Source: Giardia intestinalis (taxonomy: Eukaryota). From it: DNA of 64,000 nt. Under the pieces are notes generated by a model, which worked only from the letters and a program-made list of their open reading frames with translations, made no database searches and was not told the origin of the DNA. The translations under genes and the position numbers were made by a program. The stretch lies in the NCBI GenBank assembly GCA_000002435.2, contig CM018793.1. The stretch is one strand, 5' to 3'. This document shows, in pieces, positions 3,801 through 46,029 of the stretch (its first letter is position 1; every line of letters starts with the position of its first letter).

Positions 3801-5924
3801 CGTCTTGTTGTACGTAACATAGTCCCCAGTGCAATTACACTGCCACGTTGTGTCCCGGCCAACAGTGCATTGATACATAAGGTTAGACTGAGGAATGCAG
3901 TAGTCTGGTGCATAGGGGCCAGCAAGTGTTTTGTCAAGCTTGCATGCATCAGTAACACACGCCTTCAAGTCGGGGTTCCACGTAGCATCTGGACCGCAGT
4001 CGCATTTATATCCTCCGCTTTTATCCTTCTTTTTGACACAGTCTCCCACACCGCCGCAGTAATTGTACCACATGTGACTATCGGGTTGGCCATCGTGACA
4101 GTCATTATGCATGCAGGTTTTATTGTGTTCTCCAAAGTGTACAAGGTGAAAGCCATTTGGACACTGAGTGCACGTTTCAGGTAGATCGGGTTTGTCGGAA
4201 GGTTTAGCGCACGTAGGCAAGTCATTAGCTGGCAGGTTTTCTGTTACATTCTCAAGGAATCCACAAAAGAACCTTCTCGTCTTGTCTATCTTACTGATAA
4301 ATACACATCCAGGCTTAGCGGAGAAGGTGCCGTTGTAGGCGGAGACATTCCCATCACTGGAGTCTTTAGGAACGCATGTGATGAACGGATTGCTAGGATC
4401 GCCGAAGGTAGTGTACTGACCATCTGGTCCGCAGACGCGTGAGTCAGCAGCACGTGCGGTGGGCGGTTGCGGCGTCGATATGATGCATTTTTTGGCGGTG
4501 CATACGCCATCTATCTCCTCTGCAGTGGTTGTATCACAAGTTTCGCACTTATTGCCTGTGTAGATAGGCGAACACTGGCAAGTCATCGTATCAGGAGCCT
4601 CAGCACTAACGACAATGCGTCCATGATCGCTGCAAACCGTGGCAGGGATATCCACCAGACTGCTCAAGATGCAGCGCCCTGGAGCGATGTAAGTATAGTC
4701 CTGATCACAAGTGCATTGTATATTTCGTAGATCGTCCGTCTTGCACGTGCCGTGTCCCGAGCAGACCTTCCCCAGCTCCTCGTCCATGCATGCAGGGGAC
4801 GTGCACTCTCCGCTGACGGCAATGAGCATGTCCGGGCAGCGGCAGTGGTACTCGCCATCGGACTTGACGCATGTTCCTCCGTTCTTGCATGATTCCTGGT
4901 TGTTTGAGGTGAGGCACCCCACTGGAACGCACTTGTCGCCTACCTGAGCGGATTTCCCAGGAGTGCAAGTATCACAGAGGTCGCCCGTGGCAAGCCCTCG
5001 GCAATCGCACTTATAGCCAGCCCCGTTGCGCACACAGGCGCCCACTCCACCACAGATCTCAGTAGCAGCGCTGTCTGTGCACGCGGAGTATGTGCAAAAC
5101 TTATCGACCTGGACTGCGTCTGGGTCGCAGGCGCACTTGGGGGCACCGTCGCCTTCTTCTATACATTTTCCAAAGCCCCCACAGACGACCGGGGACCCGT
5201 CGATTGTGGCCACGCACTCTGTCCTGACGCACTTGTGCCCAACGCGTGTGTAGCCAGCATTGCACTTGCAGCGGTAGTGATATGATTCGCGATCGAGGCC
5301 CACGTCGAGGGTGCACGTTCCCTGGCCTGAGCACACGACCCCATCCGAGTCCTGGCAGGCCCGCGCATTGCACGTAGGGAGGGCGTCAGACGAAGAGCTT
5401 TCCACAGCGATCGCGTTGGCGTCGTCGCACGACTGGCAGAGGCCCCCGCGATAGATCGGGTAGCAGTCGCACGCGTAGTCGTCAGCACTCAGCCCGGCCA
5501 GCCCGGGGTCCTTCAGGAGGCAGCGGCCGCGGCCGTTGCAGGGGGCCTTCGTTGCCTCCTGGTCTGAGTAATCGCCGGTGTTGAAGCAGCTCTTCGGCAG
5601 GCACTCGCCCTCGTAGGACACGAAGCCATCGGGGCAGGGGTCGCACGAGTACGCCCCCGCGTAATAGGTGCACTTGCTCGACCCTGTGCACTCCGTCCCG
5701 TTCACGAGGCAAGCGTAGTTGACGGCCCTGTCTGCGGGTGTCTGCCCACTGGTAGTTACCCTGCGGAACCCTGCACGGGGAGCATCGCACGCAGCCCCCG
5801 CCCAGCCCCGCCTGCACTGGCAGAAGTATGCTCCGTCCCCGTAGGCGCAGTCTCCGTTAACACATGCAGGTCCTGTCCCGCATGCACTGGCGAAGAATAC
5901 AGTAGCATACAGGAGAATCAGCAT
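891..5924 (-). CDS. high-cysteine membrane protein (HCMP), EGF-like/VSP-like cysteine-rich type I membrane protein
   Basis: 1677-aa ORF with an N-terminal signal-like segment (MLILLYATVFFASA). It contains hundreds of Cys in CXXC/CXC spacing and repeated GxCxC/C..G..C EGF-like modules. A single C-terminal TM segment (AAIVVVVLLVLVAVAGFLVWWFVI) is followed by a basic cytoplasmic tail. It lacks the CRGKA terminus, so it is HCMP rather than VSP. An AT-rich initiator (taaaatcactgtATG) lies upstream. Confidence 0.85.
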   Translation of the reverse strand: MLILLYATVFFASACGTGPACVNGDCAYGDGAYFCQCRRGWAGAACDAPRAGFRRVTTSGQTPADRAVNYACLVNGTECTGSSKCTYYAGAYSCDPCPDGFVSYEGECLPKSCFNTGDYSDQEATKAPCNGRGRCLLKDPGLAGLSADDYACDCYPIYRGGLCQSCDDANAIAVESSSSDALPTCNARACQDSDGVVCSGQGTCTLDVGLDRESYHYRCKCNAGYTRVGHKCVRTECVATIDGSPVVCGGFGKCIEEGDGAPKCACDPDAVQVDKFCTYSACTDSAATEICGGVGACVRNGAGYKCDCRGLATGDLCDTCTPGKSAQVGDKCVPVGCLTSNNQESCKNGGTCVKSDGEYHCRCPDMLIAVSGECTSPACMDEELGKVCSGHGTCKTDDLRNIQCTCDQDYTYIAPGRCILSSLVDIPATVCSDHGRIVVSAEAPDTMTCQCSPIYTGNKCETCDTTTAEEIDGVCTAKKCIISTPQPPTARAADSRVCGPDGQYTTFGDPSNPFITCVPKDSSDGNVSAYNGTFSAKPGCVFISKIDKTRRFFCGFLENVTENLPANDLPTCAKPSDKPDLPETCTQCPNGFHLVHFGEHNKTCMHNDCHDGQPDSHMWYNYCGGVGDCVKKKDKSGGYKCDCGPDATWNPDLKACVTDACKLDKTLAGPYAPDYCIPQSNLMYQCTVGRDTTWQCNCTGDYVTYNKTCISKSKNANPQTHRARGLCGGPGAGYIDSTGTCVCSNGFLKIGDMCYSYDCLPVGISDNIRNPDINVLVCSGKGVCAYNQLTGRYGCECESGLEAFGGYCTHPGCVGKVIHDSEVKYVECQVYDGYLGTCNKNSDNGSYSCKCRSSLKLINNICVHPSCVSYNDVYCGGDVLAGCVKSGNRYGCVCSEGYERGQLNSQCIPSKCIYRRLSDDPPIVCSGMGTCAEENSLLKDKKCRCNNNAKLVTLRDVNGELRSTCISDRCISSGAETDTPVICGGLGRCGPNGCECDRGTEPFEKTCVSPMCLINTTDSTGKVTRTICGGETVGECTKVGSEGNHLDYTCKCKQPQQPDNYAEVDGFCLPKQCIFKVPRLDGGAEVDTMCGGRHFGSCVINSTDPTKSYCECKRERYDVIKMEDGKCMKEVCRSATLPGGSDKNVECSGHGKCATNDKSHYSCKCDSEYGIFGEYLCIPNACVDSSTDTNKICGNVGTCSLESKTCKCPPAYTGAKCENCATNYKRHSDGACYLDNCPTDGCGVDGSTDIGSCQFGGSSFDCVCVNSSFVVDSASKKCRKSRCVWSDPYDQTEKTCYGMGTCNDNGEDTGACVCNPGTTLVGTNICVYSQCISDENGSKTVCKGRGVCIASLVAGQGMCQCSDQYRTDKKTGQCFVKECFGAHASISAEVCDGGGTCNENTKKCDCNSGFQNLPGQNGCVHSNCISSDQKLCSGFGACENNNGNYMCLCANYYTLVGRDCIPTRCLKDGKVCNGGGTCSGEGSSATCSCSQGWTLHGTLCYPSACVSGGTLCGGNGNCPLSTDSTCECKYGYESVLDQLCISSQCVQRGTDGTVTICGGNGRCVSENGVKPTCICDEGFSLTSDFVCGVPAPSNKSSGGTTAAIVVVVLLVLVAVAGFLVWWFVIRPRRGGPLRERAPRKPPGLPKPQLTHNSSLTASMYSTAPLLSGSRQSSMVQL

Positions 5925-6800: not shown

Positions 6801-7265
6801 TCACAAAGGCTTTCCGCTCTCGATATGGTTGAGGATGCTGCGGCAGGTTCGCTCGACCATGGAGTAAACCAACTCAAAGCGGCCGCAGTAGTATGGGTCG
6901 GGGACATCTCCCCTTCCCTCCGGGTCATAGTCCCGGAACATCCGAACCTTGGACTGGTCGCGCCTCCCCACTTCCCGCATTATGTCTTGAAAGTTGCTTT
7001 TGTCCATGGCGAGGATGAGGTCAAAGTCGTCATAGTCCGACTTGCGCCAGTGCCTAGACTTCTTTGAAAAGGAGATGCCGAGATTGTCAGCTATGGCTTT
7101 CTGTGTGCCGTATTCCGTGGAGGTGTCTTCAGGATGCCCGAACATGCCACAGGAGTCCACCTGTACCTGGCTAGACAGGCCCGCCTTCCTCACTAGATGC
7201 TGCATGACCCCATGCGCCATGGGGGAGCGGCATATGTTCCCGAGGCACACAAAAAGGATCTTCAT
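6801..7265 (-). CDS. low-molecular-weight protein tyrosine phosphatase (LMW-PTP, ACP1 family)
   Basis: 154 aa with an N-terminal CLGNICRSP P-loop (CX5R signature of LMW-PTPs) and a C-terminal DPYY motif. Its length is typical of the family. It is divergent from RPL29 across a ~110-bp promoter region. Confidence 0.85.
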   Translation of the reverse strand: MKILFVCLGNICRSPMAHGVMQHLVRKAGLSSQVQVDSCGMFGHPEDTSTEYGTQKAIADNLGISFSKKSRHWRKSDYDDFDLILAMDKSNFQDIMREVGRRDQSKVRMFRDYDPEGRGDVPDPYYCGRFELVYSMVERTCRSILNHIESGKPL

Positions 7266-7377
7266 GGTCTGCTTGGGGGGAAAGGGAAAATATCACACAA
7301 AGATGTGAATTTATCACACTTCAACAATGTAAATCAAATTGCATTTGGTGCTTAAAACCTTCGAGCCCCCGAGACAG

Positions 7378-7566
7378 ATGGCGAAGCTGAAGAACCACAC
7401 CTCCAAGAACCAGAACCGCAAGGACCACCGCAACGGCATCAAGAAGCCCAAGAAGTCGGCGTACACGTCACACAAAGGCATGTGTCCCAAGTACCTCAGA
7501 AACCTGAGGAGGTCTCGCGCCAATGACCCCCGCCAGTCTCTCCGTCCGAACCTCAACAAGGAGTAA
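7378..7566 (+). CDS. RPL29: 60S ribosomal protein L29e
   Basis: [26 protein letters not shown]... closely matches eukaryotic RPL29 ([24 protein letters not shown]...). The track ORF (7339..7566) begins 13 codons upstream at a non-ATG (TTG) start, so the true ATG is at about 7378. The product is 62 aa. The coordinate may be off by ±1. Confidence 0.85.
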
Positions 7567-7819
7567 ATAAGGGTGTAACTTGCTTCTTCATCAGTGCTTC
7601 TGGTCTCCAGTACAGGAGTGATCAGTGCAGGCCCTAGCTAGAGCCGGGGAGAAAGATCTAGGCTTCTGACGGGCTTCTCACCGGCCTCTTGAGAATCCAG
7701 AGGGCAGCGAAAAGCGCGCTGAATGCCGTGTGCTGAGGCTAAACTGAGAAGTGCGAGTGTTAGATGGCTTGTGAAATTTCCAGGTAGCGAAAAAATAAAA
7801 CTCTGTCCAGCAGCCTGCA

Positions 7820-10524: not shown

Positions 10525-11265
10525 GGGCGTCTGGTCGACCTATGCTGTCGCTTGCCTTTTTTTGCGCTAAAGTGTTCTGGATGGACATCAATAGGTTTCA
10601 ATACAGTGGCTGCGATTGAGCTAGCCGAAAGGTCACTAAAAGGGAGACGTGAGAAAGTGCTGAAGGTAATCGGTAGCCTGCCATAAAGCCGCCAAAGAAA
10701 AAAAATCCAGAGATGGCGTATGTTTCATTGCTCGTTCCACCCGACGTCTAACACGCAGAAAGACAGAGAAGCACGCTCCCGTTGCACGCATCTCCCCCAA
10801 GAGCGTCTTTCGCGCGTCCTTTATCTTTATCGGCATAGTGCTTTCATTGCACTTTGCAACGGCACTTGTAACGAAAAAGTAAATCGAGGCTGCTAAAACA
10901 CAGGGCTGCACAGCATCCTTGCACCTGCGTAGCCGATAGGTACGGGTGACCGTTTATCCCGGGCTCGTGTGGGCCCGGGTAGGCACGGTCAAAGAGTTTC
11001 CTTCATTCAATTTTTAGATCCATCTGGCGCACGTTACGAGGCCTGGCTCCCGGTCCGGCCCTACCTTGCGTGCGCATATCTCCGGGATCTGCGCCGCGTC
11101 TGCTCGCGGCGATTTCGGTTATGCCGGCCCGAACACTCCTTCATTCAACAGGCCCGGAAGAGCGACTTCACCCGAACAGCGGCTGACCAGATACAAAGCA
11201 GGATGGGGTATTTACACCATAATCTACACAGACGATCCATTAGTGAGCAAACTCCTGGGGCGAGC

Positions 11266-31479: not shown

Positions 31480-32362
31480 TTTTGATTTAGGGAAGGATCG
31501 GCAGGTTGAGTTTCAACGCTCTGCTTTTTGCCTCAGTGATTTTACCGTGCGATTAATCTACTCTGCACAGTTAGCTAGTGGTACATTAATGTAGGTTTAT
31601 CTGATTTCCTAGAAGATAGGATTCTATTGACCTCGAATAAACTGATAGCAAGGTTGACTCCTTCAGGTCATAATAGTCTACGTGTCATAAGGATGTGTCA
31701 GCTATGCACTCATAGATTGCTGAGCAATACATATGACACCAGACAGACATCTTTACACACCCTTTAGTCGGGTTGTCAGCTATTAACAAGATCAATCTCT
31801 AAGTAAATACGATTATGTACTTACTACCATTATACGCTACATTGCTACTAGGTGCACAATACGTTATCTATGAGTGGATTCAGTCCTTGACAATATTGAA
31901 ATTCAGATACAGTAGCAGTTGCCACACGCAGTCGTAGGATCGTGATTACCCTAGATACAACAATGTGCTTGTCAAATTACTGGCTCTTCTCACAGAAATG
32001 ACTTGTTGGATGTTGAGCTTGTTATCTGCGCGACAAAGTTAGGTTAGTGGAAATAACACTAGCGCAATTAATGATCCCAGCGATATCTAAGCGCATTAAT
32101 GAGTAGAAACAAGCCACTTTAGCCATTACCTAGGCTTAAACCCTTTATTCTAGGGCTCCCAGGCGAGACGTGCTGATACAGAGCTTACCTTAAAGTAAAC
32201 ATGGTTAGGTATTTTACAACGGCTTCAACAGATATGTAGAAAGCAATAGTTTAATTCTATTACTTTAATCTATTCGTACCATTTCAAACTCCGACCGTAG
32301 CCGATGAATATCTCACCAGCAAACAGACAGAGTCCAGAGCATGAGAGGAAGATTCACTAGGG

Positions 32363-33250
32363 TTACATGACGTGCCAGAGGACGCAGCAGGCCTCGGCGA
32401 GGTTCTTGGACATCGTGGCTCGGATGTCCTTGGCTAAGTTGCCGTAGTGGGCGTAGAGGACCTTGCACTGCTCCGCCTGATCGTAGAGCATCCCGGTGAT
32501 GCGGCAGCAGCGGTCGGTGTCGCCCTTCTTCTGGCAAGCCAGGCTCAGGAGGTAGGCGGCGCCTCGGGCGGGGCAGTGGAGCGTCGCGTTGCAGCAGCAG
32601 AGCGCGAGCTCGTCGTCGCCCTTGTAGGCCTCGATGAGGGCCTGCTCGATCGTCTTCTTGGCGATGCTCTCGAACGCCTCGGAGATCTGCTTCCACTCGC
32701 TGGGGACGGTCGTGCCGAGGAGGCGGATGACCGTGTCCGTGTCCGGGTGCTTGACGCCGATCAGCGCGGCCTTCAGGGCCTCTGCATCACCCTGGGCGTT
32801 GTTGCGGGCAGACCTGCAGAAGGCAAGCCAGGAGTTCACCATGCGGGCCCAGACGGTCTTGGAGCCGATCTCCTTCCTGAGCGTGGACTCGAAGTCGTCC
32901 CCGAAGAGCTGGTGGTACCTGTCCTTGACCCTTGCGTAGACCTCGGGGGTCGTCGTCAGGAGCGCGTCCGTGAGGCACCTCTCGTCGTTCCCGCCCTTGA
33001 AGGCCTTCTTGATCAGCTTGCAGCGGACGTCGATCTCGTCGTCGAGGACGATCATCATGAGGTCCTTGTAGTCCCCGTTCTTGAACAAGGCGTCGAGGTA
33101 CTCGGAGGCCGTCTTCCCGTTGGCCGCCCTGAACGCGGCGTAGATCTCGGCGCGCTGCCTGTCGTCGAAGTCGGCGACGCTCCTCGCAAGCCCGTCCATG
33201 TCCTTGGCGTCGATGAGCGCCTTGATCTCGGTAGCCTTTGCCGCAGCCAT
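32363..33250 (-). CDS. alpha-giardin (annexin-like cytoskeletal protein), paralogue undetermined
   Basis: The track ORF (32363..33604) is 413 aa, but annexin-like sequence starts at the internal Met MAAAKATEIKALIDAKDMDGLARSVADFDDRQRAEIYAAFRAANGK... (ATG at 33250, preceded by an AAAATTAAAA initiator). This gives ~296 aa, the alpha-giardin size. It has four annexin-repeat-like segments, with motifs such as KALIDAKD, IKKAFKGG and ALIEAYKGDDE comparable to alpha-1 giardin. High GC3. Confidence 0.8.
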   Translation of the reverse strand: MAAAKATEIKALIDAKDMDGLARSVADFDDRQRAEIYAAFRAANGKTASEYLDALFKNGDYKDLMMIVLDDEIDVRCKLIKKAFKGGNDERCLTDALLTTTPEVYARVKDRYHQLFGDDFESTLRKEIGSKTVWARMVNSWLAFCRSARNNAQGDAEALKAALIGVKHPDTDTVIRLLGTTVPSEWKQISEAFESIAKKTIEQALIEAYKGDDELALCCCNATLHCPARGAAYLLSLACQKKGDTDRCCRITGMLYDQAEQCKVLYAHYGNLAKDIRATMSKNLAEACCVLWHVM

Positions 33251-35829
33251 TTTTAATTTTGCCGAGCTGTTTCTCGCCGCATGCGGACGGCAGAGGTCGG
33301 GCCAGTAGATGGAGCGCCCCTTATCGCACCGGGCTGTGGTGCGTGGACGGGGCGAGTATGTCAATCCTGCTCGGGTGCATGCTGCGACAGTCGAAGACGA
33401 GGGTCTATGTTTCCACACATAAGGGAAGCAACAATTGAGTGCTGCAGCGCGCCCGGCCGCCTGTGCCGTGGCACCCCTGAGAAGGTGCTGCCCGACGATC
33501 ATGGCCAGCCCGTAGGCTAGTCGACACATCGTGGAAGCAACAGAACGTGAGAAGCATGAAAGGCCGGTCCATGGCACGAACCAGGATGCAGATGCTCCGT
33601 GCATCGGGGGATGGCACGCTGGCCTCGCGGCGGCAGAGCCGTCATCTGATCACTCATTTACTCTCCGCTTCACCGGGGCGGGGTTGTCCCCTGCTACCTG
33701 ACCAGGTCCTCCATGCGAGCCACCGCCGCCCCGGACAAGCCACTCCCCCCATGCACCGGCCGAGATCCAGAATCCGAAATCAGAAGGTCAGATGTCGTCC
33801 AGCTCCGACGGGGAGGATTGTGCCTCCTCCTCCAGGGTGGTAACGAATGCAGATGAGCGTCCGAGGCTGGTGGTGGGATCAGCCTCTCACACGCTAAGCT
33901 GACGCTCACCAGGATCATTGCCCGCTGGTCGAGATGGACCCACACGTGACCCATGTAAATCCCTCGACAAGAAATAGGAGTTGGGGTGCTTGGCTGGCAG
34001 AGGTGGACTGATCCTGCCCGCACCGGAGAGTAGTGGCCTGGGCCACCTGCCGGGTGTCTGCCACAGCAGTTGGCAGTGCCTGACACCCTCGAGTAGACAG
34101 GTGTCGTCTGCCGAGCAAGCCGACTTCGGTGAGCCAGTCCTAATCGCTCTTGGTGCCTCAGACGACGCCTCTCAGAGAGGTGGCCCTGGACCGACGCCTC
34201 GACAGACCGAAGCATCACCCCAAGTGTGTTGTGCAGTGCAGATGGAGCCCACACGTCACTGAGCCAGACACACTGCACAGAATGAGCGTCGACACGGTCT
34301 CGTGCTGGGTGACGGAGCACCTGCAAGAGCGCCCTGCGATCCATGAGCAGAGGGCCATACTTCTCCCCGACACAACACATGGGAGTACTCCATCGACATC
34401 CACGAATGCGTACCACAACCTCAAGATGGAGGCGTACGTGGAGCGCACCCTCCGATCATACTCGAGACTGATGGTATAATCCACGAGGAGACGAAGAGGC
34501 ACCCGAGGAACGGGGTAGACACCCGGGGTCGTGGCGTGCGATCTTCGTCATGGAGCACCAGGGCCCGGGCCACGTGGAGACCAGATCGCCGCGACAAACG
34601 CAAGGCCCTGAATAACGGGTGCCCACCAGTGCCAGACGATAGTTGACCCCGATGGGCCAGAGGAAGGGGGAACCCTAGAGGTAACGTGAGGAGCAGCGGC
34701 TTCCGGGGGACGGGGCACAGAGTCTTCTCCTGTCGGGATCGAGGGCATCTGATCTTCGGACTCTGGATTTTGATCTCAGCTGGTACACGAGCGAGAGATA
34801 CCCGCTTGCCCAGGACGGCAGTGGCTCGCACGGGAAATCACTCAGGTAGCGGGTGAGCCGTCATCTGAGCTCCCGGTCGACAGACTGCCTGGCCAGTACT
34901 GATATTATATGCCGCCCCATACATTATGCATTGAGAGAGTGGTACTGCACGAGGACGCAGTGGGGCGTCTTCTTCCTTGCTCTGGAGCCAACACCTGTTC
35001 ACTGTGAGGGCGCGGATGCTCAGAGCTTCCAGGGTCGTCTACATGTGCTGGTGAGACCGGGCGGGTAGCCTTCTGGCATTAGAGGCCTGCACAGGCCAAC
35101 AGGTCCCCTCCTTTGGTTCATGAGCCATGCACCGACGCTTTTCGAGAGGCGACCCGCTCCAAGCCAGGGAACTGCGGCGGAGCGTCCTTGTAGCCTGTTT
35201 GCTGAGGCGCTTCTTATCCCCATGATCACAGAGCTAGAGAAGGCAAGCCATACTCCCCGCTCGAAGCTCTGGGGGTAGAACACCAGTCACCAGACATGGC
35301 CACGGCCACAGCTGTTCTGGCGCCTATTCTATGGGCGCCGCCACACATGTCCTCGCTCTGTGCGCAGTAGCGGCCCAGTACACAAGGGCCTAAAGTAGGA
35401 ATGCCCCAGAGACTGCCGAGATAGCTCTTGGGGTCCTGTCTTCGGGTCCATCTCTGTCTTGATACTAGTGATGCTAGGGACAGAGCCGAGGAGGAAGCGC
35501 TTTACTGGGCTTGCTTCATCTTCTGATTTTTTCGGGTCTTGAGGAGTTGATCAAGCAGCAATAGACCGCGCCAACGAGCGAGCATCGCAGCGTCTGGCAG
35601 TAAGCAGCTCCAGCCCCTGACGCGTCTACTATCGGGTGGCCCGCCGCTCTCAAGTATTTGCAGCAACGACAGCAATAGGCAATCGCCGGCCTCTTTCGCG
35701 CGCACACCCTAGAGTGGCTTCTCAGAGGCACCCTCTGCGGCGTCCTTGCGCAGCAGTGGGCAGGGTCTCGGCAAGCTCTGCCTGCTAGGACGGTCGGGGC
35801 GTCTTCTCGGAGACTGATGGCCAGCTACC

Positions 35830-38139
35830 GTGGACACGCAGGAAGTCGTCTGTAGTGGTCTAAGCATCGGTATCGAACTCCACGTTAGAAGTCACCGCTT
35901 AGCGGGCCGGAACCGTGAGAGAGGGCCCCGCAAATGCATGTTGTTCCGCCCCACAACCCGCCATCGGTTGGCAGCCTTAATGTTCGGCAGATTTTTGCTC
36001 GCGGGCGCCATTCTTCAGCTGGCACGGGCTGCGTGTGAAGAGGACAAAACCTCAACTGATGGAAAGTGTAAAACATGCGGGGTCACCATCGGCCAAGACA
36101 CTTGGTGCTCAGTTTGCATAGGAGAAAACTATGCGCCCATCAACGGAACATGCGCCGATATAACAACTGACTCTGTGGGCTCTGTCTTTTGCACCCAAAA
36201 GGCCGGCGGCGTTTGTACACAGTGTGCTGGGAACTCCTTTATGTTTGCAGGCGGCTGCTATTCCTCTTCGGAGGGTCTTCCCGGTTATAACTTGTGCTTA
36301 CGATCTGCTGGCAATGGCGTATGCGCAGAGGCTGCCCCAGGGTACTTCATTCCAGGCGAGACGGCTGCCACCAAGCCGTCGGTTATATCATGCAGCGACA
36401 AAACTGGACTGCTTATTACAGCACATACTTATAAGGGAGTGGAATTTTGTGAAGAGTGCAGCGGCTCGGAGCTGACCAGTGGCCAAGATGGAACCGCTAA
36501 GTGCACCAAGTGTGGAGCCAGCAAGTATCTCAAGGATAATGCGTGCGTGGACAACGCCGAGGCGTGCGGGAAGGGATACTTTGGTAAGCCAGATGCAGCA
36601 GCGGGTAATAAGTGCATTGCTTGTACAGATCAGTCCGACGGTGGCACGGCTGGGTGCGCCGAGTGCATGTATGACTCTAACACAAGGAAGGCCATTTGCA
36701 CAAAATGCACCACCGATTACCTCAGAAAGAAAGCAGATGGCACCACAGAGTGTGTGGCGGCGAATGAGTGCGACGATACTCAGAAAGGCTTTTATAAGGT
36801 GGTCGACTCCACAAATGGAAATAAGTGTGTATCGTGTGCCGACGGAGCCGGGCTCGCTGTCGGGACCGATGGGGCTTGGAAGGGTGTCGACGGATGTGCC
36901 AAGTGTATCAAGCCGGCAGATATAAACACACCCACAAAGTGCGACGAGTGCAAGCCGGGATATGAGATAAGTACAGACAAAACAAAATGCACAAGCACTG
37001 CACCACCGGACTGTCCAATCGAGAATTGCAAAGTGTGCTCCGAGGATAAGAGAGCCTGCGAGGAGTGCAATAGCAACAATTATCTTACCCCAACAAGAAT
37101 GTGCATAGATGACTGTAAAAAGATTGGAAACTACTATTATACCAGCAATGCTAACAATAAGCTGATCTGCAAGGAATGTGCTGTGGCTAATTGCAAGGAA
37201 TGCGAGAACACTGGGACTTGTAAGACGTGTGACGATGGATTTTACAAGAGTAGCGAAGAATGCAAGGCATGCGACTCCAACTGCAAAACATGTAATGGAG
37301 GAACTAGTGCCGATTGTACCAAGTGTCTTAGCGGAGCGGTACTCAAATATGGGAATGATGGCACTAAAGGCACATGCGGAGCTGGATGCGCAACGGGCAC
37401 AGGAGCAGGAGCATGCAAGACGTGCGGCCTAATTATTGACGGGACGAGCTATTGCTCAGAGTGTGCTGTCGAGACAGAATACCCCCAGGGTGGCGTCTGT
37501 AGCTCAACAACTGTCCGTGCTGCAGCCACTTGTAAGGCTGGAAGCGTTGCCAAGGGTATGTGTAATTCATGCACCAACGGATTCCTTCGTATGAATGGAG
37601 GCTGTTATGAGACAACCAAGTTCCCTGGAAAGAGCGTCTGTGAGGAAGCAGCATCGGCTGGGGATACCTGCCAAAAAGAGGCCCCAGGCTATCATCTTAA
37701 TAACAATGACCTTGTGACTTGCTCGCCTGGATGTAAGACGTGCACTAGTAACACTGTGTGTACTGCATGCATGGAGGGATATGTGAAAACTAGCGATTCG
37801 TGCGCAAAGTGTGCCGCTGGTTGTGCTACATGTACAGGGTCCACCACAGCTTGCGACACTTGCAGCACTGGGTACTACAAATCTGGGACTACCTGTGTGT
37901 CTTGCACGGAAAGCAACAGTGATAAGACTATCACCGGCGTCGCCAACTGCGCTAGCTGCGCTCCTCCACTCAACAATAAAGGGTCTGTCCTCTGCTACCT
38001 CATAAAGGATAGCGGTAGCACCAACAAAAGTGGTCTCAGCGCGGGCGCCATCGCGGGCATCTCCGTCGCAGTCATCATTGTTGTCGGCGGTCTTGTTGGG
38101 TTCCTCTGCTGGTGGTTTATGTGCAGAGGAAAAGCGTAG
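35830..38139 (+). CDS. vsp: variant-specific surface protein (VSP), copy 1
   Basis: Ends ...GFLCWWFMCRGKA*, the invariant Giardia VSP TM plus CRGKA tail. It has multiple CXXC motifs, GGCY motifs (FAGGCYSS, NGGCYETT) and a signal-like MFGRFLLAGAILQLARAA. The probable true start is the internal ATG at 35980 (or 35938), because the track ORF carries a non-signal N-terminal extension. The canonical polyadenylation signal AGTAAAT lies 13 nt after the stop. Confidence 0.9.
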   Translation: MDTQEVVCSGLSIGIELHVRSHRLAGRNRERGPRKCMLFRPTTRHRLAALMFGRFLLAGAILQLARAACEEDKTSTDGKCKTCGVTIGQDTWCSVCIGENYAPINGTCADITTDSVGSVFCTQKAGGVCTQCAGNSFMFAGGCYSSSEGLPGYNLCLRSAGNGVCAEAAPGYFIPGETAATKPSVISCSDKTGLLITAHTYKGVEFCEECSGSELTSGQDGTAKCTKCGASKYLKDNACVDNAEACGKGYFGKPDAAAGNKCIACTDQSDGGTAGCAECMYDSNTRKAICTKCTTDYLRKKADGTTECVAANECDDTQKGFYKVVDSTNGNKCVSCADGAGLAVGTDGAWKGVDGCAKCIKPADINTPTKCDECKPGYEISTDKTKCTSTAPPDCPIENCKVCSEDKRACEECNSNNYLTPTRMCIDDCKKIGNYYYTSNANNKLICKECAVANCKECENTGTCKTCDDGFYKSSEECKACDSNCKTCNGGTSADCTKCLSGAVLKYGNDGTKGTCGAGCATGTGAGACKTCGLIIDGTSYCSECAVETEYPQGGVCSSTTVRAAATCKAGSVAKGMCNSCTNGFLRMNGGCYETTKFPGKSVCEEAASAGDTCQKEAPGYHLNNNDLVTCSPGCKTCTSNTVCTACMEGYVKTSDSCAKCAAGCATCTGSTTACDTCSTGYYKSGTTCVSCTESNSDKTITGVANCASCAPPLNNKGSVLCYLIKDSGSTNKSGLSAGAIAGISVAVIIVVGGLVGFLCWWFMCRGKA

Positions 38140-38151
38140 ATGTACTTAGGT

Positions 38152-38158
38152 AGTAAAT
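38152..38158 (+). promoter_or_regulatory. Giardia polyadenylation signal AGTAAAT (AGTPuAAPy) downstream of VSP copy 1
   Basis: AGTAAAT begins 13 nt after the TAG stop at 38137-38139. The mirror copy lies at 40810-40816 on the minus strand, downstream of VSP copy 2. Confidence 0.7.
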
Positions 38159-38687
38159 ACGTCACTGTATAAGCCTATCACTCCTGTTTCCAGGGCCTCG
38201 CCTGTAGGTGCATTCAAGGATCTCACGGGCAATTCTTATTCAATTTCTGGCCGTCCGGAGATGAGGGTTGGTTTTGGATAACATAACGAGAGAGTCCTCT
38301 CCAGTGATATATCCAGAGCCTAGCGCCTTCCCTGGTCGCTCTGTGGGTGTGTGCTCAGACCGAATGCGTACTTCGGTCCTTTCGGGGTTCAGGCCTTCTT
38401 ACGGACTCTCTGGTCCACCAGTGGCGCCTCTTCTTGGTCTTCCTTCGTGGCGGGTGAAGCTCCGGTCGCTGTCTTTTTTAGATGCCCCGTCCGCCAGGGG
38501 CTGCCATCGGGCTCTCCGCTGGCTGGGCCCTCGGTGTCCGGGCAGCTGTGGCTCGAGTCAGTGCTCCCACGGTCGCGGTCACGTAGGTCTCAGTGGGCCG
38601 GCTGGTGGGTGAGGCAGGGGTATGGGGCGGTGAGGCTGGTGGGGACTGGTGGGGGCTGAGGTGGGGGGTGTCTGTATGTGCCTCTGG

Positions 38688-40280
38688 TCCCTCGATAGAC
38701 TGGGGTGATCATAGCTGTGGTGACTGGGGGCTGTCCATCTGTGACTCACCCCTCTGTGTGCTCGTGGTCTGTGAGTGCCTCCACCCAGACAACCCTCAGG
38801 AGCCGTGCACACCAGACAGAGAGGATGACCAAGGGGAGTCAAGTATCCCTGCCATGAGGGTGCACAGCAGCCAGCCTGGGCTGCATGGCCTGCTCAAGCG
38901 ATGTAGTGACAGACGACTCCCTCTGACAGCGACCCTGGTGACTGCACTGGTCTGCTCTCGAGGCTGAGTGGCAGTGTGCACAGACGGACCTGAGTCCAGG
39001 AGGGCCATCCACACACGGACAGACTGTGTGGACCCAGAGAGGACTGGAGTCTGCTCGGGACACGCTGACTGTAGACCTCATGCGAGAGCCCCAGACAGCC
39101 ACCCGAGAGGCAGTGACAGACACGGGCACCAGAGATCCCTAGCCAGACACATTGCTATGCTCATCCACAGGGGCATCAGAGGGCCAGGTGGAGTCACCCT
39201 CACAGTCAGGGCCTGGTAGGAAGCCAGAGGACTCACGCAGCACAGCAGAGCAGGCCCAAGGGAGGCACACTCCAGGCAGGTGAGCAGTGGCAGAGCCCTG
39301 ACAGCTGCCAGCCCCCATGACACCCAGGCAGGCACGACTCACCGAAGACTCTGCTGGCCTCGACTGCCTCTATCAATGACCCGAGGGGGCAGCAGCCAGA
39401 GGAGTGAGGAGGCCTTCGGATGACACAAGAGGCCCGGCTGTCCAGCAGACGATGGAGCACAGGTGGCCTCTGAGCACCACAAAGGCACAGGAGCCGACCA
39501 TCAGAGTGATGCCCGATCACAGAGACGACCACGAGCACCCTCCACCGCACTCTGAGGGGCTGTCGATCATTCCACTGCCTCTCATAGCAGACCTCCTTGA
39601 GGGCAGTGCAGTGAGTGACTCAGCTCATGCAGGAGGGTGCACGCCTCCCTCAGTATAGGGTGCCCCGACTCTCCCCGAGAAGTCATCAGAGCCACGAGGA
39701 GGGGTCAAGGTCCTGGTGGACCACATCGGGAACTCCTCGAGGGCACAGCAGGTGAGGTATGGGTAACCATCAGCGTGCTCCTCTCTGCATGATAGAGCAT
39801 CCTGAGACCAAGGAGGATCACCTCTGCCTACGGACGACACACAGCGCTCCACAACGAGGACCCACCAGGAGCAGCACAGCTGACCACGGAGACAGTGCAG
39901 TCACTGGTGCCCCACCATGCCAGTCTTCTGAGCCATCACACTAGAGGCACGAGAGAACCCCATCCCATCCACAGGGTCATCCACACCCCTGCTGGTCCCA
40001 GGTGAACTACCCTCGTCGAGGCACCGGACAGGGCATGCCAGGGGGCTCAGCAGACACGCACAGAGCAACAGGAGAGGCTGCGATGGCCTGCCTCAGTCCT
40101 CACGTACCGGCCAGGCAGAGAGGCAGTACTGCCCGAGGCATGCAGGGGCCAGGGAGGCACTCAGTCAGGGGGACACGACACGATCGTCGGTGCCTGTGTC
40201 TTGGAGTGCAACGAAGGCTGGGGATCAGACACAACCACCTTAGCAAACAGAGCGGGGATCACCCCAATGACCCACCGAAC
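38688..40280. other. unique non-palindromic spacer between the inverted-repeat arms, non-coding, strongly T-depleted on the + strand
   Basis: No ORF longer than ~160 aa and no recognisable protein. Reverse-complement comparison across the symmetry centre (39484) shows no self-complementarity. Many 60-nt lines contain only 3-7 T (about 5-12%). Confidence 0.7.
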
Positions 40281-43200
40281 CCAGGGGCACATACAGACAC
40301 CCCCCACCTCAGCCCCCACCAGTCCCCACCAGCCTCACCGCCCCATACCCCTGCCTCACCCACCAGCCGGCCCACTGAGACCTACGTGACCGCGACCGTG
40401 GGAGCACTGACTCGAGCCACAGCTGCCCGGACACCGAGGGCCCAGCCAGCGGAGAGCCCGATGGCAGCCCCTGGCGGACGGGGCATCTAAAAAAGACAGC
40501 GACCGGAGCTTCACCCGCCACGAAGGAAGACCAAGAAGAGGCGCCACTGGTGGACCAGAGAGTCCGTAAGAAGGCCTGAACCCCGAAAGGACCGAAGTAC
40601 GCATTCGGTCTGAGCACACACCCACAGAGCGACCAGGGAAGGCGCTAGGCTCTGGATATATCACTGGAGAGGACTCTCTCGTTATGTTATCCAAAACCAA
40701 CCCTCATCTCCGGACGGCCAGAAATTGAATAAGAATTGCCCGTGAGATCCTTGAATGCACCTACAGGCGAGGCCCTGGAAACAGGAGTGATAGGCTTATA
40801 CAGTGACGTATTTACTACCTAAGTACATCTACGCTTTTCCTCTGCACATAAACCACCAGCAGAGGAACCCAACAAGACCGCCGACAACAATGATGACTGC
40901 GACGGAGATGCCCGCGATGGCGCCCGCGCTGAGACCACTTTTGTTGGTGCTACCGCTATCCTTTATGAGGTAGCAGAGGACAGACCCTTTATTGTTGAGT
41001 GGAGGAGCGCAGCTAGCGCAGTTGGCGACGCCGGTGATAGTCTTATCACTGTTGCTTTCCGTGCAAGACACACAGGTAGTCCCAGATTTGTAGTACCCAG
41101 TGCTGCAAGTGTCGCAAGCTGTGGTGGACCCTGTACATGTAGCACAACCAGCGGCACACTTTGCGCACGAATCGCTAGTTTTCACATATCCCTCCATGCA
41201 TGCAGTACACACAGTGTTACTAGTGCACGTCTTACATCCAGGCGAGCAAGTCACAAGGTCATTGTTATTAAGATGATAGCCTGGGGCCTCTTTTTGGCAG
41301 GTATCCCCAGCCGATGCTGCTTCCTCACAGACGCTCTTTCCAGGGAACTTGGTTGTCTCATAACAGCCTCCATTCATACGAAGGAATCCGTTGGTGCATG
41401 AATTACACATACCCTTGGCAACGCTTCCAGCCTTACAAGTGGCTGCAGCACGGACAGTTGTTGAGCTACAGACGCCACCCTGGGGGTATTCTGTCTCGAC
41501 AGCACACTCTGAGCAATAGCTCGTCCCGTCAATAATTAGGCCGCACGTCTTGCATGCTCCTGCTCCTGTGCCCGTTGCGCATCCAGCTCCGCATGTGCCT
41601 TTAGTGCCATCATTCCCATATTTGAGTACCGCTCCGCTAAGACACTTGGTACAATCGGCACTAGTTCCTCCATTACATGTTTTGCAGTTGGAGTCGCATG
41701 CCTTGCATTCTTCGCTACTCTTGTAAAATCCATCGTCACACGTCTTACAAGTCCCAGTGTTCTCGCATTCCTTGCAATTAGCCACAGCACATTCCTTGCA
41801 GATCAGCTTATTGTTAGCATTGCTGGTATAATAGTAGTTTCCAATCTTTTTACAGTCATCTATGCACATTCTTGTTGGGGTAAGATAATTGTTGCTATTG
41901 CACTCCTCGCAGGCTCTCTTATCCTCGGAGCACACTTTGCAATTCTCGATTGGACAGTCCGGTGGTGCAGTGCTTGTGCATTTTGTTTTGTCTGTACTTA
42001 TCTCATATCCCGGCTTGCACTCGTCGCACTTTGTGGGTGTGTTTATATCTGCCGGCTTGATACACTTGGCACATCCGTCGACACCCTTCCAAGCCCCATC
42101 GGTCCCGACAGCGAGCCCGGCTCCGTCGGCACACGATACACACTTATTTCCATTTGTGGAGTCGACCACCTTATAAAAGCCTTTCTGAGTATCGTCGCAC
42201 TCATTCGCCGCCACACACTCTGTGGTGCCATCTGCTTTCTTTCTGAGGTAATCGGTGGTGCATTTTGTGCAAATGGCCTTCCTTGTGTTAGAGTCATACA
42301 TGCACTCGGCGCACCCAGCCGTGCCACCGTCGGACTGATCTGTACAAGCAATGCACTTATTACCCGCTGCTGCATCTGGCTTACCAAAGTATCCCTTCCC
42401 GCACGCCTCGGCGTTGTCCACGCACGCATTATCCTTGAGATACTTGCTGGCTCCACACTTGGTGCACTTAGCGGTTCCATCTTGGCCACTGGTCAGCTCC
42501 GAGCCGCTGCACTCTTCACAAAATTCCACTCCCTTATAAGTATGTGCTGTAATAAGCAGTCCAGTTTTGTCGCTGCATGATATAACCGACGGCTTGGTGG
42601 CAGCCGTCTCGCCTGGAATGAAGTACCCTGGGGCAGCCTCTGCGCATACGCCATTGCCAGCAGATCGTAAGCACAAGTTATAACCGGGAAGACCCTCCGA
42701 AGAGGAATAGCAGCCGCCTGCAAACATAAAGGAGTTCCCAGCACACTGTGTACAAACGCCGCCGGCCTTTTGGGTGCAAAAGACAGAGCCCACAGAGTCA
42801 GTTGTTATATCGGCGCATGTTCCGTTGATGGGCGCATAGTTTTCTCCTATGCAAACTGAGCACCAAGTGTCTTGGCCGATGGTGACCCCGCATGTTTTAC
42901 ACTTTCCATCAGTTGAGGTTTTGTCCTCTTCACACGCAGCCCGTGCCAGCTGAAGAATGGCGCCCGCGAGCAAAAATCTGCCGAACATTAAGGCTGCCAA
43001 CCGATGGCGGGTTGTGGGGCGGAACAACATGCATTTGCGGGGCCCTCTCTCACGGTTCCGGCCCGCTAAGCGGTGACTTCTAACGTGGAGTTCGATACCG
43101 ATGCTTAGACCACTACAGACGACTTCCTGCGTGTCCACGGTAGCTGGCCATCAGTCTCCGAGAAGACGCCCCGACCGTCCTAGCAGGCAGAGCTTGCCGA

Positions 43201-45530
43201 GACCCTGCCCACTGCTGCGCAAGGACGCCGCAGAGGGTGCCTCTGAGAAGCCACTCTAGGGTGTGCGCGCGAAAGAGGCCGGCGATTGCCTATTGCTGTC
43301 GTTGCTGCAAATACTTGAGAGCGGCGGGCCACCCGATAGTAGACGCGTCAGGGGCTGGAGCTGCTTACTGCCAGACGCTGCGATGCTCGCTCGTTGGCGC
43401 GGTCTATTGCTGCTTGATCAACTCCTCAAGACCCGAAAAAATCAGAAGATGAAGCAAGCCCAGTAAAGCGCTTCCTCCTCGGCTCTGTCCCTAGCATCAC
43501 TAGTATCAAGACAGAGATGGACCCGAAGACAGGACCCCAAGAGCTATCTCGGCAGTCTCTGGGGCATTCCTACTTTAGGCCCTTGTGTACTGGGCCGCTA
43601 CTGCGCACAGAGCGAGGACATGTGTGGCGGCGCCCATAGAATAGGCGCCAGAACAGCTGTGGCCGTGGCCATGTCTGGTGACTGGTGTTCTACCCCCAGA
43701 GCTTCGAGCGGGGAGTATGGCTTGCCTTCTCTAGCTCTGTGATCATGGGGATAAGAAGCGCCTCAGCAAACAGGCTACAAGGACGCTCCGCCGCAGTTCC
43801 CTGGCTTGGAGCGGGTCGCCTCTCGAAAAGCGTCGGTGCATGGCTCATGAACCAAAGGAGGGGACCTGTTGGCCTGTGCAGGCCTCTAATGCCAGAAGGC
43901 TACCCGCCCGGTCTCACCAGCACATGTAGACGACCCTGGAAGCTCTGAGCATCCGCGCCCTCACAGTGAACAGGTGTTGGCTCCAGAGCAAGGAAGAAGA
44001 CGCCCCACTGCGTCCTCGTGCAGTACCACTCTCTCAATGCATAATGTATGGGGCGGCATATAATATCAGTACTGGCCAGGCAGTCTGTCGACCGGGAGCT
44101 CAGATGACGGCTCACCCGCTACCTGAGTGATTTCCCGTGCGAGCCACTGCCGTCCTGGGCAAGCGGGTATCTCTCGCTCGTGTACCAGCTGAGATCAAAA
44201 TCCAGAGTCCGAAGATCAGATGCCCTCGATCCCGACAGGAGAAGACTCTGTGCCCCGTCCCCCGGAAGCCGCTGCTCCTCACGTTACCTCTAGGGTTCCC
44301 CCTTCCTCTGGCCCATCGGGGTCAACTATCGTCTGGCACTGGTGGGCACCCGTTATTCAGGGCCTTGCGTTTGTCGCGGCGATCTGGTCTCCACGTGGCC
44401 CGGGCCCTGGTGCTCCATGACGAAGATCGCACGCCACGACCCCGGGTGTCTACCCCGTTCCTCGGGTGCCTCTTCGTCTCCTCGTGGATTATACCATCAG
44501 TCTCGAGTATGATCGGAGGGTGCGCTCCACGTACGCCTCCATCTTGAGGTTGTGGTACGCATTCGTGGATGTCGATGGAGTACTCCCATGTGTTGTGTCG
44601 GGGAGAAGTATGGCCCTCTGCTCATGGATCGCAGGGCGCTCTTGCAGGTGCTCCGTCACCCAGCACGAGACCGTGTCGACGCTCATTCTGTGCAGTGTGT
44701 CTGGCTCAGTGACGTGTGGGCTCCATCTGCACTGCACAACACACTTGGGGTGATGCTTCGGTCTGTCGAGGCGTCGGTCCAGGGCCACCTCTCTGAGAGG
44801 CGTCGTCTGAGGCACCAAGAGCGATTAGGACTGGCTCACCGAAGTCGGCTTGCTCGGCAGACGACACCTGTCTACTCGAGGGTGTCAGGCACTGCCAACT
44901 GCTGTGGCAGACACCCGGCAGGTGGCCCAGGCCACTACTCTCCGGTGCGGGCAGGATCAGTCCACCTCTGCCAGCCAAGCACCCCAACTCCTATTTCTTG
45001 TCGAGGGATTTACATGGGTCACGTGTGGGTCCATCTCGACCAGCGGGCAATGATCCTGGTGAGCGTCAGCTTAGCGTGTGAGAGGCTGATCCCACCACCA
45101 GCCTCGGACGCTCATCTGCATTCGTTACCACCCTGGAGGAGGAGGCACAATCCTCCCCGTCGGAGCTGGACGACATCTGACCTTCTGATTTCGGATTCTG
45201 GATCTCGGCCGGTGCATGGGGGGAGTGGCTTGTCCGGGGCGGCGGTGGCTCGCATGGAGGACCTGGTCAGGTAGCAGGGGACAACCCCGCCCCGGTGAAG
45301 CGGAGAGTAAATGAGTGATCAGATGACGGCTCTGCCGCCGCGAGGCCAGCGTGCCATCCCCCGATGCACGGAGCATCTGCATCCTGGTTCGTGCCATGGA
45401 CCGGCCTTTCATGCTTCTCACGTTCTGTTGCTTCCACGATGTGTCGACTAGCCTACGGGCTGGCCATGATCGTCGGGCAGCACCTTCTCAGGGGTGCCAC
45501 GGCACAGGCGGCCGGGCGCGCTGCAGCACT
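40281..45530. repeat. right arm of the large inverted repeat (mirror of 33438-38687)
   Basis: See the left-arm entry. The outer boundary was verified at 45530, where ...gctgcagcact|atagag diverges from the left flank. Confidence 0.9.
40829..43138 (-). CDS. vsp: variant-specific surface protein (VSP), copy 2, identical to copy 1
   Basis: The 769-aa translation is identical to 35830..38139. It is convergent (tail-to-tail) with copy 1 and has the same CRGKA terminus and polyadenylation signal (40810-40816, minus strand). Probable true start at 42988 (or 43030). Confidence 0.9.
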   Translation of the reverse strand: MDTQEVVCSGLSIGIELHVRSHRLAGRNRERGPRKCMLFRPTTRHRLAALMFGRFLLAGAILQLARAACEEDKTSTDGKCKTCGVTIGQDTWCSVCIGENYAPINGTCADITTDSVGSVFCTQKAGGVCTQCAGNSFMFAGGCYSSSEGLPGYNLCLRSAGNGVCAEAAPGYFIPGETAATKPSVISCSDKTGLLITAHTYKGVEFCEECSGSELTSGQDGTAKCTKCGASKYLKDNACVDNAEACGKGYFGKPDAAAGNKCIACTDQSDGGTAGCAECMYDSNTRKAICTKCTTDYLRKKADGTTECVAANECDDTQKGFYKVVDSTNGNKCVSCADGAGLAVGTDGAWKGVDGCAKCIKPADINTPTKCDECKPGYEISTDKTKCTSTAPPDCPIENCKVCSEDKRACEECNSNNYLTPTRMCIDDCKKIGNYYYTSNANNKLICKECAVANCKECENTGTCKTCDDGFYKSSEECKACDSNCKTCNGGTSADCTKCLSGAVLKYGNDGTKGTCGAGCATGTGAGACKTCGLIIDGTSYCSECAVETEYPQGGVCSSTTVRAAATCKAGSVAKGMCNSCTNGFLRMNGGCYETTKFPGKSVCEEAASAGDTCQKEAPGYHLNNNDLVTCSPGCKTCTSNTVCTACMEGYVKTSDSCAKCAAGCATCTGSTTACDTCSTGYYKSGTTCVSCTESNSDKTITGVANCASCAPPLNNKGSVLCYLIKDSGSTNKSGLSAGAIAGISVAVIIVVGGLVGFLCWWFMCRGKA

Positions 45531-45596
45531 ATAGAGCAGGATGGTTTTACTGGAAATTTCGATGCGCTCCAGGCAACGGACCCCCTGAAGATCGCA

Positions 45597-45890
45597 CATG
45601 TGGCCGACAGAAAGTACAAGATGCTCCTCTGGAACCTCTCCCTGTTCTTTTCGGTTGTCCTGGAGCGCCGGCGGTTCAGCACCATCGGTTTCAACTCGCC
45701 TTATGACTGGTCCGACCCAGACCTGCACATATCCAAGACGCAGCTGCTTACTAAGTTCCAGGAGATTGCAATCTGCGATCAAGCCAGCTTCCACAAATTT
45801 CTAAGTGATTATCGGATTACAATTTTAATAGGGCAGAGCACATCTACCTATCACGGGAGAATACCAGAATCGTTAAAGATACCCGCCTAA
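45597..45890 (+). CDS. possible small ORF at the right inverted-repeat boundary, unknown function
   Basis: The track ORF 45351..45890 starts inside the repeat and crosses the boundary at 45530. Its first 60 aa are identical to the left-flank ORF 33405..33617. An internal Met (MLLWNLSLFFSVV...) just outside the repeat could be the real start of a ~97-aa protein. Weak evidence. Confidence 0.2.
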   Translation, partial: HVADRKYKMLLWNLSLFFSVVLERRRFSTIGFNSPYDWSDPDLHISKTQLLTKFQEIAICDQASFHKFLSDYRITILIGQSTSTYHGRIPESLKIPA

Positions 45891-46029
45891 AAAATAAGTC
45901 TTTCGCACTTTCCATAATATAAAGCTATTTGGCATGATATTAATTTCATGGATTAGTAATAGAGCTAGCTACCTCAGTAGGGAGAATTAGATCAGTGCCA
46001 TTAAATCACCTTTAAGCAGCTGGTCTAAT

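Follow-up and report, generated by a model that had tools for sequence, protein, structure and literature searches.

A perfect palindromic duplication of one VSP gene on chromosome 5 of Giardia intestinalis WB and its possible relation to hairpin and antisense RNA

The DNA analyzed in this study, a 64,000-nucleotide stretch of contig CM018793.1 of Giardia intestinalis (assembly GCA_000002435.2; hereafter the window), carries two identical genes of the VSP family, which face each other within a palindromic segmental duplication. Their protein is an exact match to XP_001704113.2 / XP_037902170.1 (KAE8304846 / KAE8304847), entered as 'VSP with INR' from G. intestinalis WB C6 and located on a chromosome of 4.02 Mb, and these accessions were assigned to GL50803_0014586 / GL50803_00d14586 on chromosome 5 by Rodriguez-Walker et al. 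(2022 preprint, 10.1101/2022.03.07.483299). The locus is the catalogued tail-to-tail identical VSP pair GL50803_14586 (VSP-186) / GL50803_d14586, and its arrangement has long been known. An earlier note on this DNA had proposed that RNA reading through from one copy into the other would form a long hairpin and could feed RNA silencing of VSP genes. We followed up this proposal with the structure of the locus, the identity of the pair and the gene signals, all of which were observed directly.

A single large inverted repeat was found in the window. Compared base by base, its arms are perfect reverse complements over 5,245 nt, with 0 mismatches; the identity is broken at 38683 by one mismatch, and the complementarity is gone at once beyond it. 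The repeat search extended the arms to 33438-38687 and 40281-45530 (5,250 nt) and left 1,593 nt between them, in agreement with the 1.6-kb spacer of the earlier note. Any position x in one arm corresponds to 78968-x in the other, and the whole duplication, comprising two perfect arms and a unique spacer of ~1.6 kb, spans 12.1 kb. Unique sequence, sharply bounded against the arms, makes up the spacer and the two outer flanks. The palindrome is neighbored by an alpha-giardin (annexin) gene on one side and by a flank with a dynein fragment and a large open reading frame (ORF) on the other. The arm identity covers each VSP gene together with 2.5 kb upstream and 543 nt past the stop codon, and chance is of no concern as the origin of a 5.2-kb repeat at 100% identity. 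The two inverted identical VSP copies that the earlier note had described are real, and so is the repeat; the extent given for it was too small, as the identity reaches well beyond the genes.

The two convergent ORFs, 2,689 nt apart, are complete genes for a protein of 719 aa. Read from the ATG at 35980, this protein matches Pfam PF03302 (Giardia VSP) with E=3.6e-217 and 721 bits, against a cut-off of 31.4 bits. Its N-terminus, MFGRFLLAGAILQLARA, is a putative signal peptide, judged by eye without a predictor; the ectodomain is rich in Cys and in CXXC motifs; and the C-terminus consists of a transmembrane (TM) domain followed by the CRGKA tail (...GGLVGFLCWWFMCRGKA), the translation ending ...GFLCWWFMCRGKA. 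The extended VSP poly(A) signal ACTTAGGTAGTAAATAC starts 4 nt past the stop codon and is a perfect match to ACUUAGRUAGURAAYRY, a signal found in 136/136 VSPs and almost nowhere else (10.1101/2022.03.07.483299). AGTAAAT lies at 38152 (+) and 40816 (-), exactly at the positions previously given for it. The pair thus shows every hallmark of the family: PF03302, the TM domain with CRGKA, the PyAatgTT initiator and the extended poly(A) signal within ~28 nt of the stop codon. The 3' untranslated regions (UTRs) of VSP transcripts have been measured at 16-38 nt, and cleavage in Giardia takes place 13-15 nt past the hexamer. Cleavage of the copy 1 transcript is expected ~13-15 nt beyond its hexamer, and the sequence argues for termination at 38144-38160. 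The features of the locus are collected in Table 1.

Table 1. Features of the palindromic VSP pair (positions in the window) and the basis of each assignment.
Feature	Position	Strand	Basis and remarks
Left arm of the palindromic duplication, 5,245 nt perfect	33438..38682	.	Repeat search and base-by-base check
VSP initiator/Kozak-like TAatgTT (PyAatgTT), copy 1 start codon	35978..35984	+	Sequence and published motif definition; mirror 42984-42990 (-)
VSP copy 1 coding sequence, GL50803_14586 / d14586, 719 aa; putative signal peptide MFGRFLLAGAILQLARA, ends CRGKA*	35980..38139	+	Translation; Pfam PF03302; exact protein match
Copy 1 3' flank within the arm, 543 nt perfect identity	38140..38682	+	Mirror 40286-40828; within published 318-559 nt class range
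Extended VSP poly(A) signal ACTTAGGTAGTAAATAC, copy 1; hexamer AGTAAA 38152-38157	38144..38160	+	Sequence; in the preprint's FIMO table for GL50803_14586
Unique spacer, ~1.6 kb, 61% GC; + strand A 24% / T 14.5%	38683..40285	.	Composition, motif, tblastn/blastn, tandem-repeat and Rfam checks
Right arm, reverse complement of the left arm	40286..45530	.	Repeat search and base-by-base check; outer junction 45530 continuous with flank in isolate DH
TAAAAAAG, only A/T-rich patch near the VSP 3' end facing antisense of copy 2	40488..40495	+	Mirror 38473-38480 (-), facing antisense of copy 1
Extended VSP poly(A) signal, copy 2	40808..40824	-	Sequence; mirror of 38144-38160
VSP copy 2 coding sequence, identical to copy 1, 719 aa	40829..42988	-	Repeat search and base-by-base check

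Identical inverted VSP pairs, with vsp1267 as the prototype, were first described as a class by Adam et al. in 2010, who listed 14 of them, 10 being tail-to-tail; the ORFs of the tail-to-tail class lay 2,393-3,222 nt apart, and their 3' flanks were identical for 318-559 nt before an 'abrupt divergence' (PMC2996952). The newer WB assembly has 13 tail-to-tail and 7 head-to-head identical pairs (10.1101/2022.03.07.483299), and five tail-to-tail VSP pairs are known in G. muris (PMC7641422). In the S4 table of the preprint, the 14586 pair is entered as '-> <-' with an intergenic distance of 2,689 nt and no annotated gene between (10.1101/2022.03.07.483299). The pair shares with the class its identical, convergent ORFs at this distance and an identical 3' flank of 543-548 nt (543 nt in the base-by-base check) that ends in abrupt divergence. 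It differs from the pairs tabulated in 2010 in that the identity runs 2.5 kb upstream of the start codon, longer than the listed flanks.

The same S4 table places the listed WB tail-to-tail identical pairs 2,526-2,777 nt apart, with one exception at 72 kb, and describes their intergenic regions as a few mutually similar families, a uniformity that is noted there and left unexplained (10.1101/2022.03.07.483299). The spacer of the 14586 pair is without the 'VSP-like region' flag borne by most tail-to-tail spacers; instead, its intergenic region is called 'very similar' to that between the VSP genes 50392 and 112647 (10.1101/2022.03.07.483299). The uniform spacing and the related intergenic regions could reflect common descent of the whole palindromic cassette.

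The history of the locus was approached by comparison with isolate DH (assemblage A2, GCA_000498715.1), whose assembly is 454-based, so that a collapsed palindrome is possible there. In DH, the right arm and its flank are syntenic at 93-98% identity. The conserved stretch takes in a 2,077-aa ORF, the fragment with the dynein AAA-lid and the arm as far as the VSP gene, and this identity is not interrupted at 45530, the boundary of the WB arm. No inverted repeat was found in DH within +-10 kb of the syntenic VSP gene, and the partner copy is absent there. From the DH synteny of the right arm, the right copy occupies the ancestral position. The homology between WB and DH ends ~20 nt past the VSP poly(A) hexamer (window 40811 / 38157; DH 12324), and recombination seems to have a boundary at the conserved VSP 3' end. 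In VSP-744, a DH paralogue located elsewhere, the 3' flank is of the WB type (90.6% identity) and is accompanied by 185 nt from the spacer's left end at 85%, after which the contig ends; at the left inner junction, flank and spacer were probably contiguous already in an older arrangement. VSP-744, too, loses homology at the same point ~20 nt past the hexamer.

The WB arms are 100% identical to each other, whereas the syntenic DH copy differs by 2-7% from both. As the arms are closer to each other than to the DH orthologue, either a recent inverted duplication or arm-to-arm conversion is indicated. Ampliconic palindromes, such as those of the human Y chromosome, undergo arm-to-arm gene conversion. 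The 14586 palindrome resembles them in its kb-scale arms of ~100% identity, its unique spacer and its content of multigene-family members, as well as in a within-genome identity above that to the orthologue (100% against 93-98% with DH). Unlike the human Y palindromes, it is of kb rather than Mb scale, and a very recent duplication would explain the identity as well as conversion does. In short reads from an unrelated sample, the 14586 VSP is collapsed into one contig, with a coverage of 43x against 15x for a single-copy Giardia contig (~2.9x), which is consistent with more than one VSP copy.

At the boundary of the palindrome we also observed a short ORF just outside the right arm (45351-45890, +; DH 7230-7715), which encodes a dynein heavy-chain AAA_lid_11 domain (E=1.1e-11). 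The ORF, whose frame runs into the right arm, is conserved in DH and has a gene call there; it has the appearance of an orphan dynein relic.

Based on these data, the locus is best explained as a palindromic duplication that doubles the dose of one VSP gene, with hairpin or antisense RNA as a possible low-level by-product; we put the probability of this reading at roughly three in four. Each arm would be a self-contained VSP transcription unit, with initiator, signal peptide, CXXC-rich ectodomain, TM domain and CRGKA tail, and extended poly(A) signal. Since the extended signal is perfect and VSP 3' UTRs are short, each copy may be taken as a complete, separately terminated gene. The normal RNA of each copy is probably an mRNA with a short 3' UTR, cleaved ~30 nt past the stop codon, and two copies yielding such an mRNA would act as a double dose of one antigen gene. 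The perfect identity of the arms may have come from recent inverted duplication, from arm-to-arm gene conversion or from both. Hairpin or antisense RNA would then come only from that share of polymerases which fails to respond to the poly(A) signal and continues for at least 2.7 kb. We judge the hairpin to be neither the main source of VSP antisense RNA nor the purpose of the arrangement.

The expression data agree with this explanation. The GL50803_14586 protein was detected in WB-C6, at a level ~40-fold above that in metronidazole-resistant lines, and also in a canine isolate; the tail-to-tail pairs 11470 and 103992 were likewise detected as protein. Other duplicated VSP pairs provide the dominant VSP of clones and single cells (10.1101/2022.03.07.483299). 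As tail-to-tail pairs are seen as protein, the arrangement does not silence itself. Protein detection excludes constitutive silencing of the pair and leaves room for a quantitative or switching role.

Several observations weigh against so simple an interpretation. The poly(A) signal of another VSP gene, 40591, can evidently be bypassed, because alternative polyadenylation 1,274 nt downstream was documented for it in single cells. Once past the first signal, a polymerase would meet nothing in the sequence to halt it: beyond 38160, no further AGURAA/AAUAAA hexamer was found on the + strand up to 42988, and by symmetry the same holds for the - strand, although this lack of hexamers is not significant (see below). 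Under unique mapping, the 14586 gene received a score of 0 in every sample (10.1101/2022.03.07.483299). Reads with a match in both arms are thrown out by standard pipelines, which has left existing analyses largely unable to see RNAs from this pair. The small-RNA list that we mapped to the locus (see below) had been filtered for hairpin precursors of ~100 nt and would tend to miss small interfering RNAs (siRNAs) from a long hairpin. Finally, the uniform distance of tail-to-tail pairs (2,526-2,777 nt) and their related intergenic sequences could hint at a constrained module and not a neutral duplication.

The first alternative gives the read-through RNA a far larger part. A hairpin with a stem of 2.7 kb and a loop of 1.6 kb, or the corresponding antisense RNA, would be processed by Dicer into 25-26-nt siRNAs, and the 14586 pair, along with tail-to-tail pairs as a whole, would be a significant endogenous trigger of VSP silencing. 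We consider this unlikely; its geometry is sound. The conditional part of the earlier note holds: a + strand RNA that continues past the poly(A) signal and across the spacer would be antisense to copy 2 and would fold on itself. The perfect complementarity and the overwhelming folding energy favor the idea: for an RNA of 35980-42988, the stem would measure 2,708 bp, the loop 1,593 nt and the energy -5,965 kcal/mol. When the construct was reduced to the spacer with 300 nt of either arm, an unconstrained minimum free energy fold likewise paired 299/300 arm bases with their mirror partners. The perfect duplex claimed earlier was borne out, and its length was not: from the true ATG the perfect stem measures 2,703-2,708 bp, whereas the ~2.3 kb of the note resulted from measuring from a GTG-started ORF (35830). 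The conditional is correct yet close to tautological, and all hinges on such RNA being made.

The path that a polymerase would have to travel was also characterized. The spacer showed no similarity by blastn to the arms, to the rest of the window or to itself, and tblastn of the VSP protein found no VSP-like coding remnant in the intergenic region (E>1); the spacer as a recognizable VSP pseudogene or repeat was rejected on the lack of matches in both searches. Tandem repeats are confined to the flanks, where they are trivial (a 10-nt unit in 2.3-2.5 copies), and none in the spacer is meaningful. The spacer RNA (38688-40280, +) folds at -654 kcal/mol, with z=-5.7 against mononucleotide shuffles, a control that does not preserve dinucleotides. 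An ORF at 40002-40490 gave as query a single weak metaclust match without a contig, and no metagenome contig contained an exact match to the left arm/spacer junction. The strong A-over-T strand asymmetry of the spacer flips at its left inner junction. The sole Rfam match in 33000-46000 at a permissive threshold, EBV sisRNA-1, was set aside as chance (23 bits against a gathering value of 58, E=0.079).

The absence of later poly(A) hexamers and of any AT-rich patch in the spacer (no A/T run >=6 was found there) counts in favor of read-through. The hexamer result is not significant, as the 4.8-kb path scanned is expected to hold a mean of 1.12 hexamers and contains zero in 34% of dinucleotide-preserving shuffles; on these grounds we rejected the absence as the mark of a designed read-through path. 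The documented bypass in VSP 40591 speaks for read-through, as does the finding that transcripts overlap in 81% of Giardia tail-to-tail gene pairs with mapped 3' UTRs. The latter figure, however, was obtained in a genome whose intergenic distances have a median of 79 nt, as against the 2.7 kb of this pair. The perfect extended poly(A) signal and the short measured 3' UTRs of VSP transcripts stand against read-through.

The small-RNA evidence also bears on this alternative. We mapped 99 of the 105 Argonaute-bound small RNAs listed by Saraiya et al. 2014 (PMC3937270), and 0/99 fell on the arms or the spacer with up to 5 mismatches, in a list that had been pre-filtered for ~100-nt hairpin precursors. 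Two of the tested small RNAs map elsewhere in the window, so the mapping test works. The published VSP-derived small RNA, msRNA-VSP, gave no match. In an early small-RNA survey, VSP reads numbered 1,633 sense against 133 antisense (~12:1), and this sense bias is unlike the Dicer products of a perfect duplex. The expression of the protein and the absence of the partner copy at the DH locus are further points against a significant silencing role.

Antisense RNA from VSP genes is abundant, its origin is unresolved in the literature, and it is reported for most VSPs, including unpaired ones. Sense exceeded antisense in only 12-20% of VSPs; in the remaining 80-88%, antisense was at least equal or no transcripts were found. 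That the source is unresolved, and that multi-mapping reads are usually dropped, keeps a place for the hairpin. On the other side, only 26/136 VSPs sit in tail-to-tail pairs, while antisense is also seen on single VSPs and on head-to-head pairs, which cannot work by hairpin read-through.

Hairpin RNA (hpRNA) or inverted-repeat endogenous siRNA loci exist in Drosophila, mouse oocytes, plants and Trypanosoma brucei. There, both arms belong to a single transcription unit, which has been demonstrated, and small RNAs are observed. The 14586 pair has in common with them a long perfect inverted repeat, a spacer of loop size and the capability to form a duplex, and, if transcribed as one unit, it would like them give a Dicer substrate against the parent gene family. 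Unlike hpRNA loci, its arms are intact, protein-coding and separately terminated genes whose protein is expressed; silencing of the cognate gene, which belongs to the definition of such loci, is at odds with the detected protein.

The idea was also compared with the existing models of VSP control. In 2008, Prucca et al. reportedly proposed an RNA interference (RNAi) model of VSP antigenic variation, with VSP antisense RNAs, a double strand made by RNA-dependent RNA polymerase (RdRP), Dicer and Argonaute. Liao et al. (2014) are said to have traced the endogenous siRNAs of Giardia not to VSP pairs but to telomeric retrotransposons and to three further regions of the genome. The microRNA (miRNA) model of Saraiya et al. 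2014 relies on miRNAs derived from small nucleolar RNAs and ORFs (PMC3937270). The Prucca and Saraiya models share with the hairpin idea the VSP mRNA targets and the Dicer and Argonaute machinery; unlike it, neither invokes inverted gene pairs. Adam et al. 2010 make no mention of hairpins or double-stranded RNA (PMC2996952), and a limited search of open-access papers found none that links inverted VSP pairs to a hairpin or to read-through double-stranded RNA, in line with the suspicion of the earlier note that the mechanism might be undescribed. The hairpin RNA is a legitimate hypothesis that appears to be unpublished, and the indirect evidence leans against a major role for it.

A side observation concerns the Saraiya list itself. 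Of the 105 'miRNAs' in its Table S1, about 40 originate on the two strands of a single ~35-kb region with DNA-polymerase-like ORFs (old scaffold CH991767:1.351-1.387 Mb). This cluster fits a locus that generates siRNAs better than it fits miRNA genes, and it is consistent with the endogenous siRNA regions reportedly described by Liao et al. (2014).

The second alternative holds that antisense RNA at the 14586 pair comes from the known Giardia sources, namely bidirectional or cryptic AT-rich promoters, or the RdRP of the Prucca model, and that the inverted arrangement is irrelevant to silencing; we regard it as improbable. Both cryptic AT-rich initiators and bidirectional promoters were shown experimentally in Giardia, with sterile transcripts from AT-rich patches (Teodorovic 2007). 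At the present locus, the patch TAAAAAAG lies ~340 nt downstream of each stop codon and is oriented toward the gene as a candidate promoter; intergenic A/T runs >=6 occur only at 38473-38480 and 40488-40495, both in the arm flanks. As judged from its letters, the patch is a weak candidate for a cryptic AT-rich initiator, an A-rich patch of 8 nt being a very weak predictor. The reports of antisense for most VSPs, whatever their arrangement, and the fact that an RdRP/Dicer/Argonaute model has already been proposed speak for this alternative, but it leaves the maintained identity of the pairs and their uniform spacing unexplained. A regulatory role of antisense RNA in Giardia is disputed.

A third, quite improbable possibility is that tail-to-tail VSP palindromes are a conserved functional module, in which read-through hairpins seed Dicer/Argonaute silencing of the pair and could reach other VSPs via the shared 3' end. 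The spacing of 2.5-2.8 kb, the related spacers, the 100% arms and the presence of such pairs in both G. intestinalis and G. muris fit this reading. If it were true, the palindromes would be a DNA-encoded, RdRP-independent trigger for antigenic switching.

It is very improbable indeed that the palindrome is an assembly artefact, in which one VSP gene was wrongly assembled into an inverted pair: identical pairs of this kind gave trouble in the Sanger assembly and were queried as artefacts, and the partner copy is absent in the DH assembly, but the pair is present in an assembly from 200x PacBio, Illumina and an optical map and was re-confirmed by an independent group, the vsp1267 inverted pair had been shown by cloning before genomics (PMC2996952), the collapsed VSP contig has the raised coverage described above, and the unique spacer and outer flanks meet the arms at sharp boundaries.

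In Giardia it is unsettled how one of ~136 VSPs is expressed and where the abundant VSP antisense RNA comes from, with RNAi/RdRP, miRNA, epigenetic control and transcriptional noise as competing ideas. If hairpin RNA were made from convergent identical pairs, it would be a simple, genetically encoded source of double-stranded VSP RNA. There is also a methodological lesson, as unique-mapping pipelines drop the reads from identical pairs, so that a proper look at the question has probably never been taken. With multi-mapping reads kept, the hairpin idea would be cheap to test on public data already available.

Some further features of the window were observed around the palindrome. A GC-rich island of 14 kb (32000-46000) coincides with the palindrome and the annexin gene; it has 55-61% GC per kb, with the VSP coding regions at ~50-53%, against a background of 42-47%. 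Two published Argonaute-bound 'miRNAs' match the window exactly, namely miR65 at 32977-33002 (-) and miR66 at 10974-10997 (+). The former falls within the annexin/alpha-giardin ORF, which the source annotates as alpha-7.2 giardin (GL50803_114119), and the latter in an intergenic stretch. On the old scaffold CH991776 they are 105 kb apart with an inconsistent relative orientation, while they are 22 kb apart in the window, which suggests an error of the old assembly near the VSP pair or a paralogue match. At a distance of 30 kb from the VSP pair, a 1,677-aa ORF (891-5924, -) with EGF-like repeats and GC-rich ends probably encodes a cysteine-rich membrane protein (CRMP/HCMP-type).

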